This document shows positions 5,102 through 19,701 of a stretch of DNA of 52,313 nucleotides, piece by piece. Source of the stretch: Candidatus Methanomethylophilaceae archaeon. Its GTDB lineage: Archaea; Thermoplasmatota; Thermoplasmata; Methanomassiliicoccales; Methanomethylophilaceae. The DNA is taken from NCBI GenBank assembly GCA_017508065.1, contig JAFVZR010000112.1:1-52313 (forward strand), read 5' to 3'. The translations under genes were made by a program, and so were the position numbers. Each line of letters begins with the position of its first letter. The first letter of the stretch is position 1. The notes beneath the pieces are model-generated. The model was not told the DNA's origin, made no database searches, and saw nothing but the letters and a program-made list of their open reading frames with translations.

Positions 5102-6982
5102 ATGTCTAGAATCATTGGAATCGATTTGGGTACAAGCAATTCCGCAGCATCCGTTATGGAAGGCGGAAAGGCGACCATGGTCCCCAGCGAAGAGGGAACC
5201 AGCATTGGCGGAAAGTCCTTCCCGTCATATGTCGCATTCACACAGGATGGTCAGCTTCTCGTAGGAGAGCCCGCTAGGAGGCAGGCAGTCACCAACCCTA
5301 ACGGAACCATCAAGAACGTGAAGAGGAAGATGGGAACCTCTGAGAAGGTATCCGCACTCGGAAAGGAGTACACTCCTCAGCAGATCTCCGCATTCATCCT
5401 TCAGAAGATCAAGAGGGACGCAGAGAGCTACCTCGGTGGAGAGACCATCGATAAGGCAGTCATTACCGTTCCCGCATACTTCGACGACAACCAGAGGCAG
5501 GCAACCAAGGATGCTGGTGCAATCGCAGGTCTCGAGGTCGTTCGTATCATCAACGAGCCTACCGCGGCAGCACTCGCATACGGTATCGACAAGGGTAACG
5601 TCTCCCAGAAGATCCTCGTCTTCGATCTCGGAGGAGGAACCCTCGATGTCACCATCATGGACTTCAGCGACGGAGTCTTCGAGGTTCTCTCCACTTCCGG
5701 AGACACCAAGCTCGGTGGATCCGATATGGATGAGGCACTCACCAACTACATCATCTCCGAGTTCAAGAAGGAGACCGGAATCGACCTCGCACAGGACAAC
5801 ATGGCGTTCTGGAGGGTCAGAGAGGCATGTGAGAAGGCAAAGATCGAGCTCTCCACCACCATGCAGACCGAGATCAACCTGCCCTACATCACCTCCGACG
5901 CAACCGGTCCCAAGCACCTGATGAAGACCCTCACCCGCGCAAAGCTCGAGGAGCTCGTCGAGCCCATCGTCTCCCGCTGCAGGACCTCCATCGTCCAGGC
6001 AATGAACGATGCAGGACTCTCCAACGACAACATCGACAAGATCATCATGGTCGGTGGACCCACCAGGATGCCCATCGTCCAGAACTTCGTCGAGAACATC
6101 GTCGGACCCAAGATCCAGCGCGGAATCGACCCCATGGAGTGCGTTTCCATGGGTGCAGCAATCCAGGGAGCCGTCCTCTCCGGAGATGTCAAGGACGTCC
6201 TTCTGTTGGATGTCACTCCTCTGTCCCTTGGTATCGAGACCCTCGGTGGAATCGCAACCAAGCTCATCGACAGGAACACTACCATCCCCACCAGGAAGTC
6301 CCAGGTGTTCTCCACCGCAGTGGACAACCAGCCCTCTGTCGAGATCCACGTCGTTCAGGGAGAGAGGGAGATGGCAGCAGACAACACCTCCTTGGGAAGA
6401 TTCTCCCTTGATGGTATTCCTCCCGCACGTCGTGGAGTGCCTCAGATCGAGGTCACATTCGACATCGATGCGAACGGTATCATCAACGTCACCGCAAAGG
6501 ACAAGGGAACCGGAAAGGAGCAGAAGATCACCATCGCATCCTCCAATAAGCTCAGCAAGGAGGAGATCGACAACATGGTCAAGCAGGCAGAGCAGTTCGC
6601 TGAGGCCGACAAGAAGAAGCGTGAGGAGATCGAGGTCCTCAACCAGGCCGAGTCCACCATCTACACCGTCAGGAAGTCCCTTGACGAACTCGGTGAGAAG
6701 GTCAGCAACGAGGAGAGGGCTTCCATCGAGGCAGCGATCTCCGATCTCGAGGCTGCACAGGCAACCAAGGATGTCGAGCAGGTCAAGCAGAAGATGGACG
6801 CCCTCTACAAGGCAATGGAGCCCATCTCTCAGAAGATCTACGAGCAAGCCGCGAAGGACCAGCAGGCCCAGGGCGGTTGCGATTGCGGATCCGGCTGCGG
6901 AACCGGTCAGAAGAGCCAGGAGTCCAAGGCAAACGACGGCGACTTCGTAGATGCCGACTACAAGATCGTGGATGACGAGTAA
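5102..6982 (+). CDS. dnaK: Hsp70 chaperone DnaK
   Basis: The motifs '[10 protein letters not shown]', '[10 protein letters not shown]', 'DLGGGTLDV' and 'VGGPTRMP' are present, and the protein is 626 aa. Confidence 0.97.
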
Positions 6983-16913: not shown

Positions 16914-17462
16914 ATGGAGAATCGCTATAAGGACACTCTGGACGCGTTGGTCCGTTGCATCCACGAATCTGCCGAATCTATAGATCCAGCATCTCTCAGT
17001 AATCTAGTGGAGCTGATTCTTTCCAAGAAGACCATATTCATCTATGGATCAGGAAGGTCCGGGCTGGTTGGGCAGTACTTCGCGGTCAGATTGGTGCAGC
17101 TGGGTCTTGATGTACATTTCGTCGGTGACATGACCACTCCGATCATTGGGTCCGACGATCTGACCATATTGATCTCCAATACCGGGGAAACGATGTCCGC
17201 CGTACAGACTGCCAACATCGCAAGGCGCATCGGTTCTCATGTCGTCTGTATAACCGCATCCAAGTTCAGTAAGCTGGCTCATGCGTCAAATTCTATGATA
17301 TTGCTTCATACTCCGAAGACCACTGATGGTAACCTCTTGCCTCTCGGTACACTTTTCGAGGATTCTGTCATCCTGATGTTCGATTCCCTGATTCCCGAAT
17401 TGATGAAGAAATTGGGACAGTCTGAAGCGGACATGCGTAAGAAACACGCGATCTGGGTCTGA
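16914..17462 (+). CDS. hxlB: 6-phospho-3-hexuloisomerase (SIS domain)
   Basis: The SIS/PHI pattern is 'IFIYGSGRSGLVGQYFAVRLVQLG...ILISNTGET...ARRIGSHVVCITA'. The gene starts 1 nt after the preceding stop. Confidence 0.8.
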   Translation: MENRYKDTLDALVRCIHESAESIDPASLSNLVELILSKKTIFIYGSGRSGLVGQYFAVRLVQLGLDVHFVGDMTTPIIGSDDLTILISNTGETMSAVQTANIARRIGSHVVCITASKFSKLAHASNSMILLHTPKTTDGNLLPLGTLFEDSVILMFDSLIPELMKKLGQSEADMRKKHAIWV

Positions 17463-17966
17463 TTATTCCATTACGATCATCTGTATCTGTTGCGGCCCAT
17501 CGATGGTGGAATCGAATACCTTCAACTGACGTAGTACTGGGTCTATCACCATAGCAAAACCGATGTGTCCCCCGAACAATCCGTTCTGGGTCTTTATGTC
17601 CGTATCCGACATGAAACATCCGCAACCCAGGTGTGAGTGGTACCATCCGATTATACGGTCACCATTCTTCAACTCATCTATCTCATCGATGAGCTGGGTC
17701 ATATCTGATTGATCGAATCTTACGCTGGTCTCGTCCGCTTCTAATTCGGATGATATCACACCTGTCGCGATAGCATATTCGCCATCATCGTCCTTGTAGA
17801 CCTTTCCGACGATGAGTCCCATGATCTCGGAATCGCGCAACAAACCCTCATCACCGTGGTCCGTTATGACGTCTATGAGGTCGTCACGGATGAAGAACGG
17901 AACTCCACGTACGGAGCGCTTTTTCACTTCTGGCTTATATTCATCCACACTTACAATCCGAGTCAT
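17463..17966 (-). CDS. JAMM/MPN+ metalloisopeptidase (Rpn11-like deubiquitinase / Ubl-processing protease)
   Basis: The full MPN+ motif is present, with 'EIMGLIVG' supplying the Glu and 'GWYHSHLGCGCFMSDTD' supplying HxH-x7-S-xxD. The ATG at 17966 overlaps the E2 stop as ATGA. The track's 56-codon N-terminal extension was rejected. Confidence 0.9.
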   Translation of the reverse strand: MTRIVSVDEYKPEVKKRSVRGVPFFIRDDLIDVITDHGDEGLLRDSEIMGLIVGKVYKDDDGEYAIATGVISSELEADETSVRFDQSDMTQLIDEIDELKNGDRIIGWYHSHLGCGCFMSDTDIKTQNGLFGGHIGFAMVIDPVLRQLKVFDSTIDGPQQIQMIVME

Positions 17967-18445
17967 TGTGTGCCACCGTAATGGATCTCTGCATCGAATT
18001 TGGGCGAATCGTCCGAAAAGTACTTCGCTGCGTCCATACACGATTCCGTACCGAACGGGCTCATTGGGTTGGGGTTGGAGACAAGGATCTCCACGCCTCT
18101 GAGGAACGTGAGCAACGGTGTTCCAAAGTCCCAAGTGTCCAACATCTTGGTGCAGACGTATCCTCCGTCCTCAGGGTCCATGATGTTAGGGTGGAATATC
18201 TTGGATTTCCATCTGACCTCTGGTTTCTGCATACCATACTCTTCAGTGAGTATGATATAGAATTCGTGTTCGGTAGTGGCCTTTCCGGGAGCTTCGTATC
18301 CTACGACCTTGCTCATGTGCATATCTATACGAATGGGGAATTCCGCTCTTTCGGAATCGAATTTAAAATCCGAACCGAGGTACTTTCCGCAATCCCTCAA
18401 TTCCGTTGCGATACGTCTTTTCAGAACTTGTGGTGGGAGCCCCAT
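17963..18445 (-). CDS. Ubiquitin-conjugating enzyme (E2, UBC fold) with canonical HPN...Cys active site
   Basis: 'KPEVRWKSKIFHPNIMDPEDGGYVCTKMLDTWDFGTPLLTFLRGVEILVSNPNPMSPF' parallels UbcH5 '[57 protein letters not shown]'. The catalytic Cys codon is at 18154-18152. The track start at 18451 is a TTG, and an ATG lies at 18445. Confidence 0.85.
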   Translation of the reverse strand: MGLPPQVLKRRIATELRDCGKYLGSDFKFDSERAEFPIRIDMHMSKVVGYEAPGKATTEHEFYIILTEEYGMQKPEVRWKSKIFHPNIMDPEDGGYVCTKMLDTWDFGTPLLTFLRGVEILVSNPNPMSPFGTESCMDAAKYFSDDSPKFDAEIHYGGTQ

Positions 18446-18687
18446 CGACAACCGCCTTCCGGATCTGGAATCATTTCAAGAACATCATCGTTCAGAAGTC
18501 CTGCATCCGGAACCTTAGTTTTTCCGGACAACAGTTTCTTGCCTTTCTTGAGGACATATGCGCCCGCATCCAGATTCCAGTACTCTCCTGCACTGACGAT
18601 AAGATCGTTCACGGTCTCGTCAGGTTCCGCTTCCATCCTAAGACTTGTTCCGTTGGCAAGATTCTTTATTGTGAGCCTAATGGTCAT
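18421..18687 (-). CDS. Ubiquitin-like beta-grasp protein precursor (88 aa; GG followed by a 9-aa tail, CRWGSHHKF)
   Basis: 'LRMEAEPDETVNDL' parallels ubiquitin 'TLEVEPSDTIENV', and 'KKGKKLLSGKTKV' parallels 'FAGKQLEDGRTLS'. A di-Gly sits at residues 78-79. The ATG at 18687 shares 1 nt with the E1 stop (TAATG). The track's 22-codon extension was rejected. Confidence 0.75.
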   Translation of the reverse strand: MTIRLTIKNLANGTSLRMEAEPDETVNDLIVSAGEYWNLDAGAYVLKKGKKLLSGKTKVPDAGLLNDDVLEMIPDPEGGCRWGSHHKF

Positions 18688-19457
18688 TACGATTCCCTCC
18701 CATGGTTCGGACAGGTCGGATCGATGTCCGCCTCTACAGTGAACATATCGCATAACGTTCCGTCATAATAAGTAACGTTCGTTATGCACAGTTCCGGATG
18801 TCCAGATATTATCTTCATGGTTTCACGGACCTGCATGGCGGCCACGATGGCAGTGGTGGTCACATCGGATGCGAGGTGTGGTGTGAATGATGAATTACCC
18901 GTGCATGTGTGTCTGGTTTCCATGGTCTTCACATGCGTACGGTTGGACACGCATTGTAGGCATGGTCTTCCGGGGAGGATGACGTGGACCTTCCCTCTCA
19001 TGCCATCGGTAGCTCCATCGATGTATGGGATACCATAATAGCAAGTGGTGGCGTTAAGGTCCATCCTTGCAAGTATGTTGTCCAAACAACCCAATGCGAT
19101 GTCGAATCCCTCTATATCGACGTCCTGTATCCTGCCAACGATCGGCACAATCTCTACATCCGGGGCTAGAAGGGATGCACGTTCGGCTACGATCTCGGAT
19201 TTCATACCCTTCTTCACATCTGAGTCGGTGAAGAACATGCATCTGTTGAGATTGGACAGTACGATATCATCCATGTCCACAACGGTGATCCTCTTGAATC
19301 CTGCAAGTACGAGGTTCTTGACGACCTCGTTCCCAAGTGCTCCGGCACCTGCGACGAGGACATTGGATGAACGTATCGCATCCTGGTCCACCCATGTGAT
19401 GCGCCTTTGGCGATCATATCTGTCCTTGTCCTCAAAACCCGCGGATACGGTGTCCAT
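18687..19457 (-). CDS. ThiF/MoeB/E1-like Ubl-activating adenylyltransferase (256 aa)
   Basis: The motifs 'RYDRQ', the Rossmann loop 'VLVAGAGALGNEVVKNL' and 'VDMDDIVLSNLNRC' are present. Zn-type pairs 'CLQC' and 'CPNH' occur, and 'HTCTG' is a candidate cross-over-loop Cys. Confidence 0.9.
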   Translation of the reverse strand: MDTVSAGFEDKDRYDRQRRITWVDQDAIRSSNVLVAGAGALGNEVVKNLVLAGFKRITVVDMDDIVLSNLNRCMFFTDSDVKKGMKSEIVAERASLLAPDVEIVPIVGRIQDVDIEGFDIALGCLDNILARMDLNATTCYYGIPYIDGATDGMRGKVHVILPGRPCLQCVSNRTHVKTMETRHTCTGNSSFTPHLASDVTTTAIVAAMQVRETMKIISGHPELCITNVTYYDGTLCDMFTVEADIDPTCPNHGRES

Positions 19458-19506
19458 GGAGCATAATATCGTTAAGGACTAATAATCGCATGGTCATAGC
19501 CGTGGT

Positions 19507-19701
19507 ATGGCGCTGAAGTTGCCCGACCATTCACACTGTGTACATTGCGGAGATCCGATCCCTTTTGGTGAACAGTATTGTGATGAAAAGTGTCAGGATT
19601 CATTCACCAAGGAGTCCAAGAGGACTCGTATCAAGGATTTCGCATTCTATTCCACCGTGGCCTTGGCGTTGGTGGTCATTGTTTATGCCTATATCCTTTG
19701 A
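19507..19701 (+). CDS. DUF2116-like zinc-ribbon protein with a C-terminal TM helix
   Basis: 'CVHCGDPIPFGEQYCDEKCQ' is followed by a basic linker and the hydrophobic 'FAFYSTVALALVVIVYAYIL'. Confidence 0.6.
   Translation: MALKLPDHSHCVHCGDPIPFGEQYCDEKCQDSFTKESKRTRIKDFAFYSTVALALVVIVYAYIL

Follow-up and report, generated by a model that had tools for sequence, protein, structure and literature searches.

Does a methanogenic archaeon encode a complete ubiquitin-like conjugation pathway, with an E2 of the eukaryotic kind? Archaeal E2-dependent ubiquitylation has been discussed almost wholly around the Asgard and TACK lineages and eukaryogenesis, and the SAMP modifiers of euryarchaea are taught as E2-free; to our knowledge, the eukaryote-style reaction has been demonstrated in archaea in vitro alone, for the uncultured Caldiarchaeum. 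The question is raised by four overlapping genes on a 52,313-nucleotide (nt) stretch of DNA, hereafter the window, which is contig JAFVZR010000112.1 of the Candidatus Methanomethylophilaceae archaeon assembly GCA_017508065.1. We consider that this cassette is probably a chromosomal, vertically inherited operon for complete, E2-dependent conjugation and deconjugation of a ubiquitin-like modifier (Ubl), operating either with no E3 or with an E3 acting in trans. This conclusion is carried by the gene structure, the folds, the conserved catalytic residues, the purifying selection and the order-wide synteny that were seen for the following genes:

Positions 18687 to 19457, minus strand: E1-like Ubl-activating enzyme, 256 amino acids (aa), with a single ThiF adenylation domain.
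Positions 18421 to 18687, minus strand: pro-ubiquitin-like modifier, the Ubl, 88 aa, beginning MTIRL.
Positions 17963 to 18445, minus strand: predicted UBC-fold E2 conjugating enzyme, 160 aa, beginning MGLPP.
Positions 17463 to 17966, minus strand: predicted MPN+/JAMM metalloprotease of the Rpn11/CSN5 type, 167 aa.

The initial annotation of the window had proposed four minus-strand open reading frames running from 19457 to 17463, and all four were found at those coordinates. The junctions that it described were read exactly so in the sequence: E1 and Ubl overlap by 1 nt in TAATG, Ubl and E2 by 25 nt, and E2 and JAMM by 4 nt in ATGA. Independent gene calls on other contigs with an identical E2 returned the same lengths of 256, 88, 160 and 167 aa, and the exact E2 sequence of the window was present in 134 blocks of the public collection. 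The ratio of nonsynonymous to synonymous substitution rates (dN/dS, omega) against the closest orthologue (locus L088) was 0.068 for E1, 0.021 for Ubl, 0.014 for E2 and 0.078 for JAMM, the E2 being under the strongest purifying selection among the four genes. The matching gene calls, the Pfam scores given below and the low dN/dS values put the cassette far beyond chance. Its GC content (about 0.50) was the same as that of the flanks, and base composition was uniform.

The product of the third gene, for which a UBC fold had been claimed, reached 40.7 bits (E 2.3e-10) with Pfam PF00179 (UQ_con), whose gathering score is 27, and the same family was detected in 24 out of 24 first-round homologues. 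When the PDB was searched with phmmer, 249 matches were obtained at E ≤ 1, the best being Ubc13/UBE2N (1.6e-9), and all 60 PDB matches listed were canonical E2s. In the alignment with Ubc13, the HPN, Cys, Trp and PNP positions coincided. The AlphaFold2 (AF2) model had a predicted local distance difference test score (pLDDT) of 86, and Foldseek matched it with a probability of 1.0 to UBE2N, RAD6, UbcH5 and UbcH7 over 143-155 columns, so the claimed fold was supported by Pfam, by the PDB sequence search and by the model. Identity to eukaryotic E2s was 20-27%, and Bil or Cap2 structures were not among the top PDB or Foldseek matches. The residues of interest are:

Positions 18154 to 18152, minus strand: codon of the predicted catalytic Cys98 of the E2, as given in the initial annotation.
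Within the E2 gene, minus strand: H85-P86-N87; W105; P125-N126-x3-P130.

Conservation was scored in sets of 64 (E1), 70 (Ubl), 80 (E2) and 61 (JAMM) orthologues. H85, P86, N87, C98, W105, P125 and N126 of the E2 showed no variation among 25 sequences and at least 95% conservation in the 80, so that the HPN and Cys read by eye in the window are kept in its orthologues. At the same threshold, the conserved positions were I83-F-H-P-N-I-M89, P91, D93-G-G95, V97-C98, L102, W105, P125-N126, P130 and C136. As predicted from sequence and model, then, the protein is a UBC-fold E2 with canonical HPN and Cys.

The second gene encodes a beta-grasp of residues 1-79, ending IPDPEGG, followed by a short tail:

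Positions 18456 to 18451, minus strand: codons of G78-G79, the C-terminal Gly-Gly of the beta-grasp.
Positions 18450 to 18424, minus strand: tail CRWGSHHKF, 9 residues past the Gly-Gly.

Sequence-level family membership of the Ubl was weak, as Pfam yielded just TUG-UBL1 at 19.5 bits, under its gathering score of 23.3. The AF2 model, built with 25 homologues, had a pLDDT of 84, and its best Foldseek matches were SUMO1, Hub1, ubiquitin, NEDD8 and ISG15, with target-normalised template-modelling (TM) scores of 0.83-0.90 and root-mean-square deviations of 1.1-1.5 Å; MoaD and ThiS were not among the top 50 matches. A family profile searched with HMMER had ubiquitin chains as its sole PDB matches, with 'RMEVEPDEKVEDI' aligned with 'TLEVEPSDTIENV'; the E values were weak, about 0.1-0.8, on single ubiquitin domains and 4e-10 on poly-ubiquitin. 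The likeness to the ubiquitin segment 'EVEPSDTIENV' that had been noticed by eye was thus recovered by HMMER over the same segment, weakly for single domains. Taken together, the model points to a ubiquitin-type beta-grasp fold with a C-terminal Gly-Gly.

P74-D-P-E-G-G79 was at least 95% conserved among the Ubl orthologues, and 1-10 further residues were always present after it. Since every orthologue has at least one residue past the Gly-Gly, a processing protease is obligatory, and the operon encodes one. Most orthologues carry a single extra residue (C, R, I, N or L), and the 9-10-residue tail CRWGS... belongs to the subclade of the window. A conserved pro-peptide was therefore rejected as an explanation of the tail. 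The long tail is the very stretch that overlaps the E2 start, suggesting loss of a stop codon with read-through. Of the earlier remark that a GG stands near the C-terminus, the conservation of the GG held, but the 9-aa tail of the window is not conserved in orthologues.

The protease is the product of the fourth gene, which matched Pfam JAB at 5e-13. Its PDB matches were Rpn11 (7e-10), the Caldiarchaeum Rpn11-like protein (6fju/6fjv, 4-6e-9) and CSN5, and it scored 32 bits against a cut-off of 130 with desamp_Halo, the NCBIfam desampylase model. The candidate catalytic motif residues are:

Positions 17828 to 17826, minus strand: codon of E47 of JAMM.
Positions 17639 to 17631, minus strand: codons of H110-S-H112 of JAMM, followed within the gene by S120.
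Positions 17600 to 17598, minus strand: codon of D123 of JAMM.

E47, G107-W-Y-H-S-H112, S120 and D123 were at least 95% conserved in the 61 orthologues, which bears out the initial description of a complete MPN+ metalloprotease. These results place the protein as a predicted Rpn11-like MPN+ protease, not one of the JAMM1/2 type, and this class agrees with the published tree for the Methanomassiliicoccus luminyensis protein (PMC4453063).

What kind of E1 would charge this modifier? The product of the first gene matched Pfam ThiF at 3.7e-49. Its top PDB match was the active adenylation domain of Uba1 (3e-27), then UBA3, SAE2 and UBA7, with Bil not among the top PDB matches, and the PDB match that aligned with it end to end was E. 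coli MoeB (249 aa, 7e-22). In a search with the C-terminal half, C166-x-x-C169 and C249 aligned with the zinc motifs of UBA3. The catalytic-Cys domain of UBA3, of about 90 aa, is a 28-aa crossover loop in this protein, whose chain ends after the C-terminal Zn motif. The end-to-end alignment with MoeB and the short loop in place of the UBA3 Cys domain indicate that the E1 is, by its predicted architecture, MoeB-like, without a Cys domain, a second adenylation domain or a ubiquitin-fold domain (UFD). The initial annotation had spoken of a eukaryote-type module: for the E1 this holds for the adenylation domain, which is closest to Uba1/UBA3, but not for the rest of the protein, which is MoeB-sized and has neither Cys domain nor UFD. 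The candidate functional residues are:

Positions 18905 to 18903, minus strand: codon of Cys185, the invariant crossover-loop Cys and candidate thioester site of E1.
Within the E1 gene, minus strand: nucleotide loop G37-AGALGNE44; D126 and R131; Zn-site candidates C166-x-x-C169 and C249/H252.

Among the 64 orthologues, conservation of at least 95% was found for G37-AGALGNE44, D61/D63, S68-N-L, R72, K86, D126-N127 and R131, and in the C-terminal half for C166, C169, C185-T-G, C249, N251 and H252. Cys185 lies 16 residues past the CxxC, a position that we take to be comparable with ThiF C184, MoeB C187 and the UBA3 catalytic Cys. In one metagenome-assembled genome (MAG; GCA_051887655.1, L001:6986-7762), the E1 was called in two pieces of 165 and 80 aa, either through an assembly-error frameshift or by real pseudogenisation.

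An E1 of MoeB size and architecture, aligned end to end with MoeB, is also what would be expected if the cassette were a sulfur carrier or dual-function system of the SAMP/MoaD/ThiS type, with the Ubl thiocarboxylated for molybdopterin, thiamine or tRNA thiolation and the E2-like protein accessory or non-catalytic. Indeed, the best NCBIfam matches of the E1 were ThiF and MoeB, but both were below cut-off, and the protein fell far under every equivalog threshold (ThiF TIGR02356, 111 vs 275 bits; MoeB NF004281, 98 vs 266 bits), including that for UbaA (SAMPActivE1UbaA, 83 vs 450 bits). That archaeal SAMPs do both sulfur transfer and conjugation (PMC5654768 supplement) lends the idea some precedent. 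It is countered by a modifier whose model fits ubiquitin, SUMO and NEDD8 but has neither MoaD nor ThiS among its 50 best matches, and which is made as a precursor needing a JAMM protease. The E2, moreover, keeps its HPN and Cys and is the most constrained of the four genes (omega 0.014). No rhodanese domain, moaE, thiG, ncs6 or other sulfur-acceptor gene was detected in the cassette neighbourhood. In most of 80 related loci all four genes are kept and are not embedded in a MoaD/ThiS pathway; such embedding was one of the outcomes that the initial annotation had named as fatal to its proposal, and none of those outcomes was seen. We regard a sulfur-carrier role as quite improbable, and an E2-dependent conjugation operon remains our preferred interpretation.

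Next, the distribution of the cassette was assessed in a scan of one genome per GTDB species, which returned 295 genomes with an E2 relative; the best 80 loci were examined. The E2 family comprised 24 proteins in the first round and then 804, and those with a named source came from Methanomassiliicoccales, Methanomethylophilaceae or Thermoplasmata. The best 80 loci were nearly all from Methanomassiliicoccales or other Thermoplasmatota, and the methanogen-related euryarchaeon guessed as the host was indeed a member of the Methanomassiliicoccales. A tblastn search with five window proteins showed that most of the 80 loci have the order E1-Ubl-E2-JAMM with an SIS (PHI-like) gene converging on it, and this order was kept down to 42-50% E2 identity. 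The wider block reads CCG/Fer4, folP and DUF2116 on one side of the cassette and SIS, AP_endonuc_2, L18e, L13, S9 and RpoN on the other; AP_endonuc_2 was present in 62 of the 80 loci, L18e in 55, and DUF2116/folP in about 40. The called neighbours were LarA, CCG/Fer4, folP, SIS and ribosomal genes; neither mobile nor defence genes were among them, as the initial annotation had said of the flanks, and no CD-NTase was found there. The locus is a core-genome housekeeping synteny block, not an island. A tblastn search of 72,556 plasmids and 50,697 phages gave no E2 relative on mobile DNA, and with this result and the uniform composition a mobile-element origin was rejected.

These data bear on whether the cassette was recently acquired from a eukaryote or from Asgard/TACK archaea, or is a decaying relic without an integrated function. 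The best PDB scores of the E2, the JAMM and the E1 adenylation domain are against eukaryotic proteins, and one MAG carries the split E1 call; yet the E2 is just 20-27% identical to eukaryotic E2s, and overlapping genes with Shine-Dalgarno (SD) motifs are a prokaryotic organisation. The chromosomal position is the same in lineages whose E2s are 42-50% identical, E2 relatives occur in 295 species-level genomes with the best 80 loci nearly all in Thermoplasmatota, selection is strongly purifying, and GC is as in the flanks. Recent transfer or decay is, in our judgement, barely credible, and vertical inheritance of a working conjugation operon is the better account.

A different function for the same gene set is offered by bacterial defence. 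BilABCD has the same content (Ubl, E2, JAB and E1), and an antiviral module of the Bil/Bub/6E type would tag phage or virus structural proteins on infection. Common to both systems are the four activities, the absence of an E3, and an E1 without a UFD whose Zn site is close to the C-terminus (as in BilD). The Ubls of Bil likewise have a short tail past a conserved Gly that is trimmed by the deubiquitinase (DUB), and BilC cuts up to nine residues past that Gly (PMC10557695). However, the gene order here is E1-Ubl-E2-DUB, whereas that of Bil is Ubl-E2-DUB-E1; BilD is a multidomain protein of about 500 aa (IAD+AAD+CYS) and BilB a divergent 'CEHH' E2 without HPN, whereas the present cassette has a 256-aa E1 and a canonical HPN UBC protein. 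With PADLOC, the E1 gave weak matches to the Cap2 'E1-E2' models, but these covered its Rossmann segment alone (about 25-110, up to about 170) at no more than 43 bits; the E2 and Ubl were negative, and the JAB reached just 14.5 bits. Membership of a known defence system was rejected on these grounds, the E1 matches being generic to the ThiF segment. In CBASS type II, Cap2 is an E1-E2 fusion beside a CD-NTase and an effector, whereas E1 and E2 are separate genes here. Moreover, Bil is patchy and lies in defence islands, while this locus is a fixed, order-wide housekeeping block of uniform composition in the core genome, with no plasmid or phage relatives of its E2 found by tblastn. We therefore hold an antiviral role to be unlikely, and a housekeeping conjugation system is preferred.

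Among described systems, the closest in working would be that of Caldiarchaeum subterraneum and the Asgard archaea. The Caldiarchaeum operon holds Ub, E2, E1 and the RING E3 srfp, with an adjoining Rpn11-like JAMM (Clusters I/II of Hennell James et al. 2017, PMC5654768; Nunoura et al. 2011, PMC3082918); its Rpn11 removes a 9-aa tail from pro-Ub (GGCGEPIRRAA), and the cascade of its E1 and E2 has been shown to operate in vitro (PMC5654768). Shared features are a ubiquitin-fold precursor with a short tail past the GG (in Caldiarchaeum also of 9 residues with Cys first), a UBC E2 with HPN/Cys and a PNxxS/P loop, an Rpn11/CSN5-type rather than JAMM1 protease, and overlapping operon genes. The differences lie in the E1, which in Caldiarchaeum and Asgard has Cys-domain helices, a second (inactive) adenylation domain and a UFD, none of which is present in the 256-aa protein, and in the E3, since no RING protein was found in or near the cassette. 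The likeness breaks down at two defining features of that family, the multidomain, UFD-bearing E1 and the small RING E3. In addition, the order here is E1-Ubl-E2-JAMM, with the JAMM presumably co-transcribed, whereas Caldiarchaeum has Ubl-E2-E1-RING and a divergent Rpn11. Identity to ubiquitin is about 11-20% for the Ubl here and exceeds 30% for CsUb, and the host is a methanogenic, 'euryarchaeal' thermoplasmatote rather than a TACK or Asgard archaeon.

Two other archaeal groupings were compared. Cluster III comprises archaeal E1s without a UFD that resemble bacterial E1/E2/JAB operons (Hennell James et al. 2017, Supplementary Note 4, PMC5654768). Compared by that definition only, our cassette is alike in its UFD-less E1 clustered with Ubl, E2 and JAB, but the E2s of Cluster III are described as falling among divergent E2-like proteins of bacteria, whereas the E2 here looks more canonical (UQ_con, eukaryotic best matches). 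SAMP/UbaA/HvJAMM1 of Haloferax and Urm1/ELSA of Sulfolobus share the MoeB-sized E1 with a crossover-loop Cys, a GG-ended beta-grasp and a JAMM; unlike the cassette, they have no E2, their modifiers are sulfur carriers (MoaD/ThiS/Urm1-like), and their JAMMs belong to groups 1 and 2. With an E2 predicted and the UbaA and desampylase cut-offs missed, the cassette would not be a SAMP system. What sets it apart is the minimal MoeB-type E1, the lack of an E3 and the order-wide core-genome conservation in methanogenic Thermoplasmatota.

How, then, would the pathway run? We infer its chemistry, step by step, from homology with the Caldiarchaeum and Bil systems, which have been reconstituted. The JAMM would cut the 88-aa precursor past Gly79, taking the tail off and exposing the IPDPEGG end. 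The MoeB-sized E1, probably a homodimer, would bind the Ubl and adenylate Gly79 with ATP/Mg, after which the Ubl would become thioester-linked to the crossover-loop Cys185. Trans-thioesterification would pass it from E1 to Cys98 of the E2, and HPN-aided aminolysis would let the E2 put it on target lysines, either directly or via an E3 encoded elsewhere. The same JAMM would undo the modification. The most likely role would be proteostasis or regulatory tagging, possibly linked to the proteasome, rather than defence.

Several observations weigh against this proposal. The E1 has neither the UFD that recruits E2s in canonical cascades nor a dedicated Cys domain; for the hand-off, a Bil-like, UFD-independent contact between E1 and E2 would have to be assumed. 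Relative to Ubc13, three residues are inserted between HPN and Cys of the E2, and the E2 model reaches TM scores of just 0.5-0.65 with solved E2s. No RING E3 was recognised: a permissive regular expression found none in all six frames of the window or in about 90 loci, and the called neighbours of the cassette loci included no RING family of Pfam. Finally, some distant Thermoplasmatota loci hold just E2 and JAMM, or Ubl, E2 and JAMM, indicating that the E1 partner is not always in cis.

As a more specific and tentative proposal, which we put forward as possible rather than probable, the MoeB-like homodimeric E1, with no Cys domain or UFD, might pass the Ubl directly to the HPN E2, which would modify substrates without an E3; such a cascade might have been inherited vertically since the ancestor of Methanomassiliicoccales and built on an older, Thermoplasmatota-wide E2-JAMM core. 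If this were true, the E1/Ubl pairs of sulfur carriers and the E1-E2-E3 cascade of eukaryotes would be bridged by a living intermediate, the cassette. E2 ubiquitylation with an Rpn11-type protease would then not be specific to Asgard and TACK archaea, and would either predate their split from the 'euryarchaeal' lineages or have been anciently exchanged.

Parts of the cassette have been noticed before. Some orthologues already bear automatic names, at NCBI 'ubiquitin-conjugating enzyme E2' and 'ubiquitin family protein', at JGI 'ubiquitin-protein ligase' or 'E2 C', and in UniRef 'UBC core domain-containing protein'. Fort et al. 2015 reported M. luminyensis WP_019177758 and the Caldiarchaeum protein as the sole archaeal Rpn11 orthologues, placed both with eukaryotic Rpn11/Rpn8 outside archaeal JAMM groups 1 and 2, and did not remark on an E1, E2 or Ubl nearby (PMC4453063). 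Grau-Bove et al. recorded euryarchaeal Ub components from one Marine Group II single-cell genome alone. Full-text searches turned up no paper on the cassette itself, the one relevant item being Fort et al. 2015; subscription-only papers lay outside those searches. The novelty left open by the initial annotation is therefore partial: the cassette appears undescribed as such, but it is order-wide, its proteins are already auto-annotated, and the M. luminyensis JAMM was noted in 2015.

The finding matters because, throughout a methanogen order with gut and rumen species, the core genome holds an operon that combines a canonical E2 with a ubiquitin-fold pro-modifier and an Rpn11-type protease. If active, the system would widen the phylogenetic base of ubiquitin, offer a minimal architecture found in nature, with a MoeB-like E1 and neither UFD nor E3, for studying the evolution of E1-to-E2 transfer, and provide mesophilic proteins and culturable hosts in which to pursue substrates and physiology. 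The M. luminyensis JAMM and locus L071 suggest that the cultured genus Methanomassiliicoccus carries the cassette. As the host group includes cultured, mesophilic, human-associated methanogens, this could be the first archaeal E2 system with in vivo substrates that can be mapped.

Signals for expression were sought around the four starts, and two of them are placed as follows:

Positions 19479 to 19487, minus strand: GATTATTAG, a candidate TATA-like element of the archaeal kind, with its centre about 26 nt ahead of the E1 ATG.
Positions 18695 to 18701, minus strand: SD-like GGGAGGG for the Ubl cistron, within the last codons of E1.

Further SD-like motifs were GGAAGGCGG ahead of the E2 start and GGTGG ahead of the JAMM start; in the window, each of the three motifs lies 4-15 nt ahead of its start. 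In the orthologous loci, such motifs were present at -18..-4 of 61/69 Ubl, 41/78 E2 and 39/60 JAMM starts. No SD motif preceded E1 in the window or in any of 60 orthologous loci (0/60), suggesting a leaderless first cistron; the region upstream of E1 in 60 loci was 67% A+T at -36..-19, with a TATA-like hexamer in 35. The restriction of SD-like motifs to the internal cistrons fits one polycistronic, translationally coupled mRNA, and we infer that a single promoter serves the operon, that the E1 cistron is leaderless and that the cistrons after it are SD-led and translationally coupled. The motif GGAAGGCGG consists of the P-E-G-G codons of the Ubl (CCG GAA/GAG GGC GG), which double as the SD-like motif of the E2, so that the C-terminus of the modifier and the translation signal of the E2 are mutually constrained. 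At the other end of the cassette, the JAMM stop (minus strand) and the stop of the SIS/PHI-like gene (plus strand, 16914-17462) abut at 17462/17463 with zero spacer, and the convergent transcripts must overlap or end within each other.

Some observations were made on the neighbours. In most of the 80 loci the SIS-AP_endonuc_2 pair converges on the cassette, even where E2 identity is about 44%. A DUF2116 gene (19507-19701, plus strand, 64 aa; Pfam 'probable treble clef', 3.8e-17) is divergent from E1 and 49 nt off its start; the adjacency was seen in about 42 of 80 loci and was absent elsewhere. Its product has an N-terminal C-x2-C...C-x3-C zinc motif and a C-terminal transmembrane helix. RING domains are binuclear treble clefs, and a role of the DUF2116 protein as a membrane-anchored adaptor or E3-like factor is conceivable but unsupported. 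In three loci of one Methanomassiliicoccales lineage (L085-L087), an extra co-directional gene (about 5267-6472, plus strand) stands between JAMM and SIS. The predicted protein of 360-401 aa has a signal peptide, many N-x-S/T sequons and a C-terminal transmembrane helix, with no Pfam match, and looks like a surface glycoprotein; with these traits, it was rejected as a cis-encoded E3. Three loci from one project labelled Eggerthellaceae, Anaerovoracaceae and Bacteroides salyersiae (L019, L021 and L022) hold the full archaeal cassette together with archaeal L18e and folP/CCG neighbours, and are probably contigs mis-binned from a co-occurring Methanomethylophilaceae genome.

Variant arrangements were also seen. 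Four loci (L070, L072, L074 and L075) have Ubl-E2-JAMM without an adjoining E1. In distant Thermoplasmatota (L060:5992-8376, L076:4801-6507, L080:4786-7442 and L082), one or two JAMM genes come after the E2, and their products carry long acidic linkers and C-terminal transmembrane helices; one such protein, of 510 aa, has two complete MPN+ domains; no Ubl or E1 was found within 6 kb of the E2 in this group. Four proteins of about 225-232 aa (P0176, P0179, P0182 and P0186) have an N-terminal domain of about 78 aa, possibly beta-grasp-like by eye and without Pfam support, fused to a UBC-like domain that keeps HPN and has the catalytic Cys replaced by S, E, N or R; these are possible inactive E2s, resembling ubiquitin E2 variants (UEV), fused to a possible Ubl. 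In P0162 (L094:259-1008), a Ubl ending ...IPDPTGG and an E2 form one polypeptide, followed by a JAB gene, and E2-JAB fusions were found in P0151, with a C-terminal zinc ribbon, and in P0169, with a PQQ-like beta-propeller. Such natural Ubl-E2 and E2-JAB fusions among relatives indicate functional coupling of the components.

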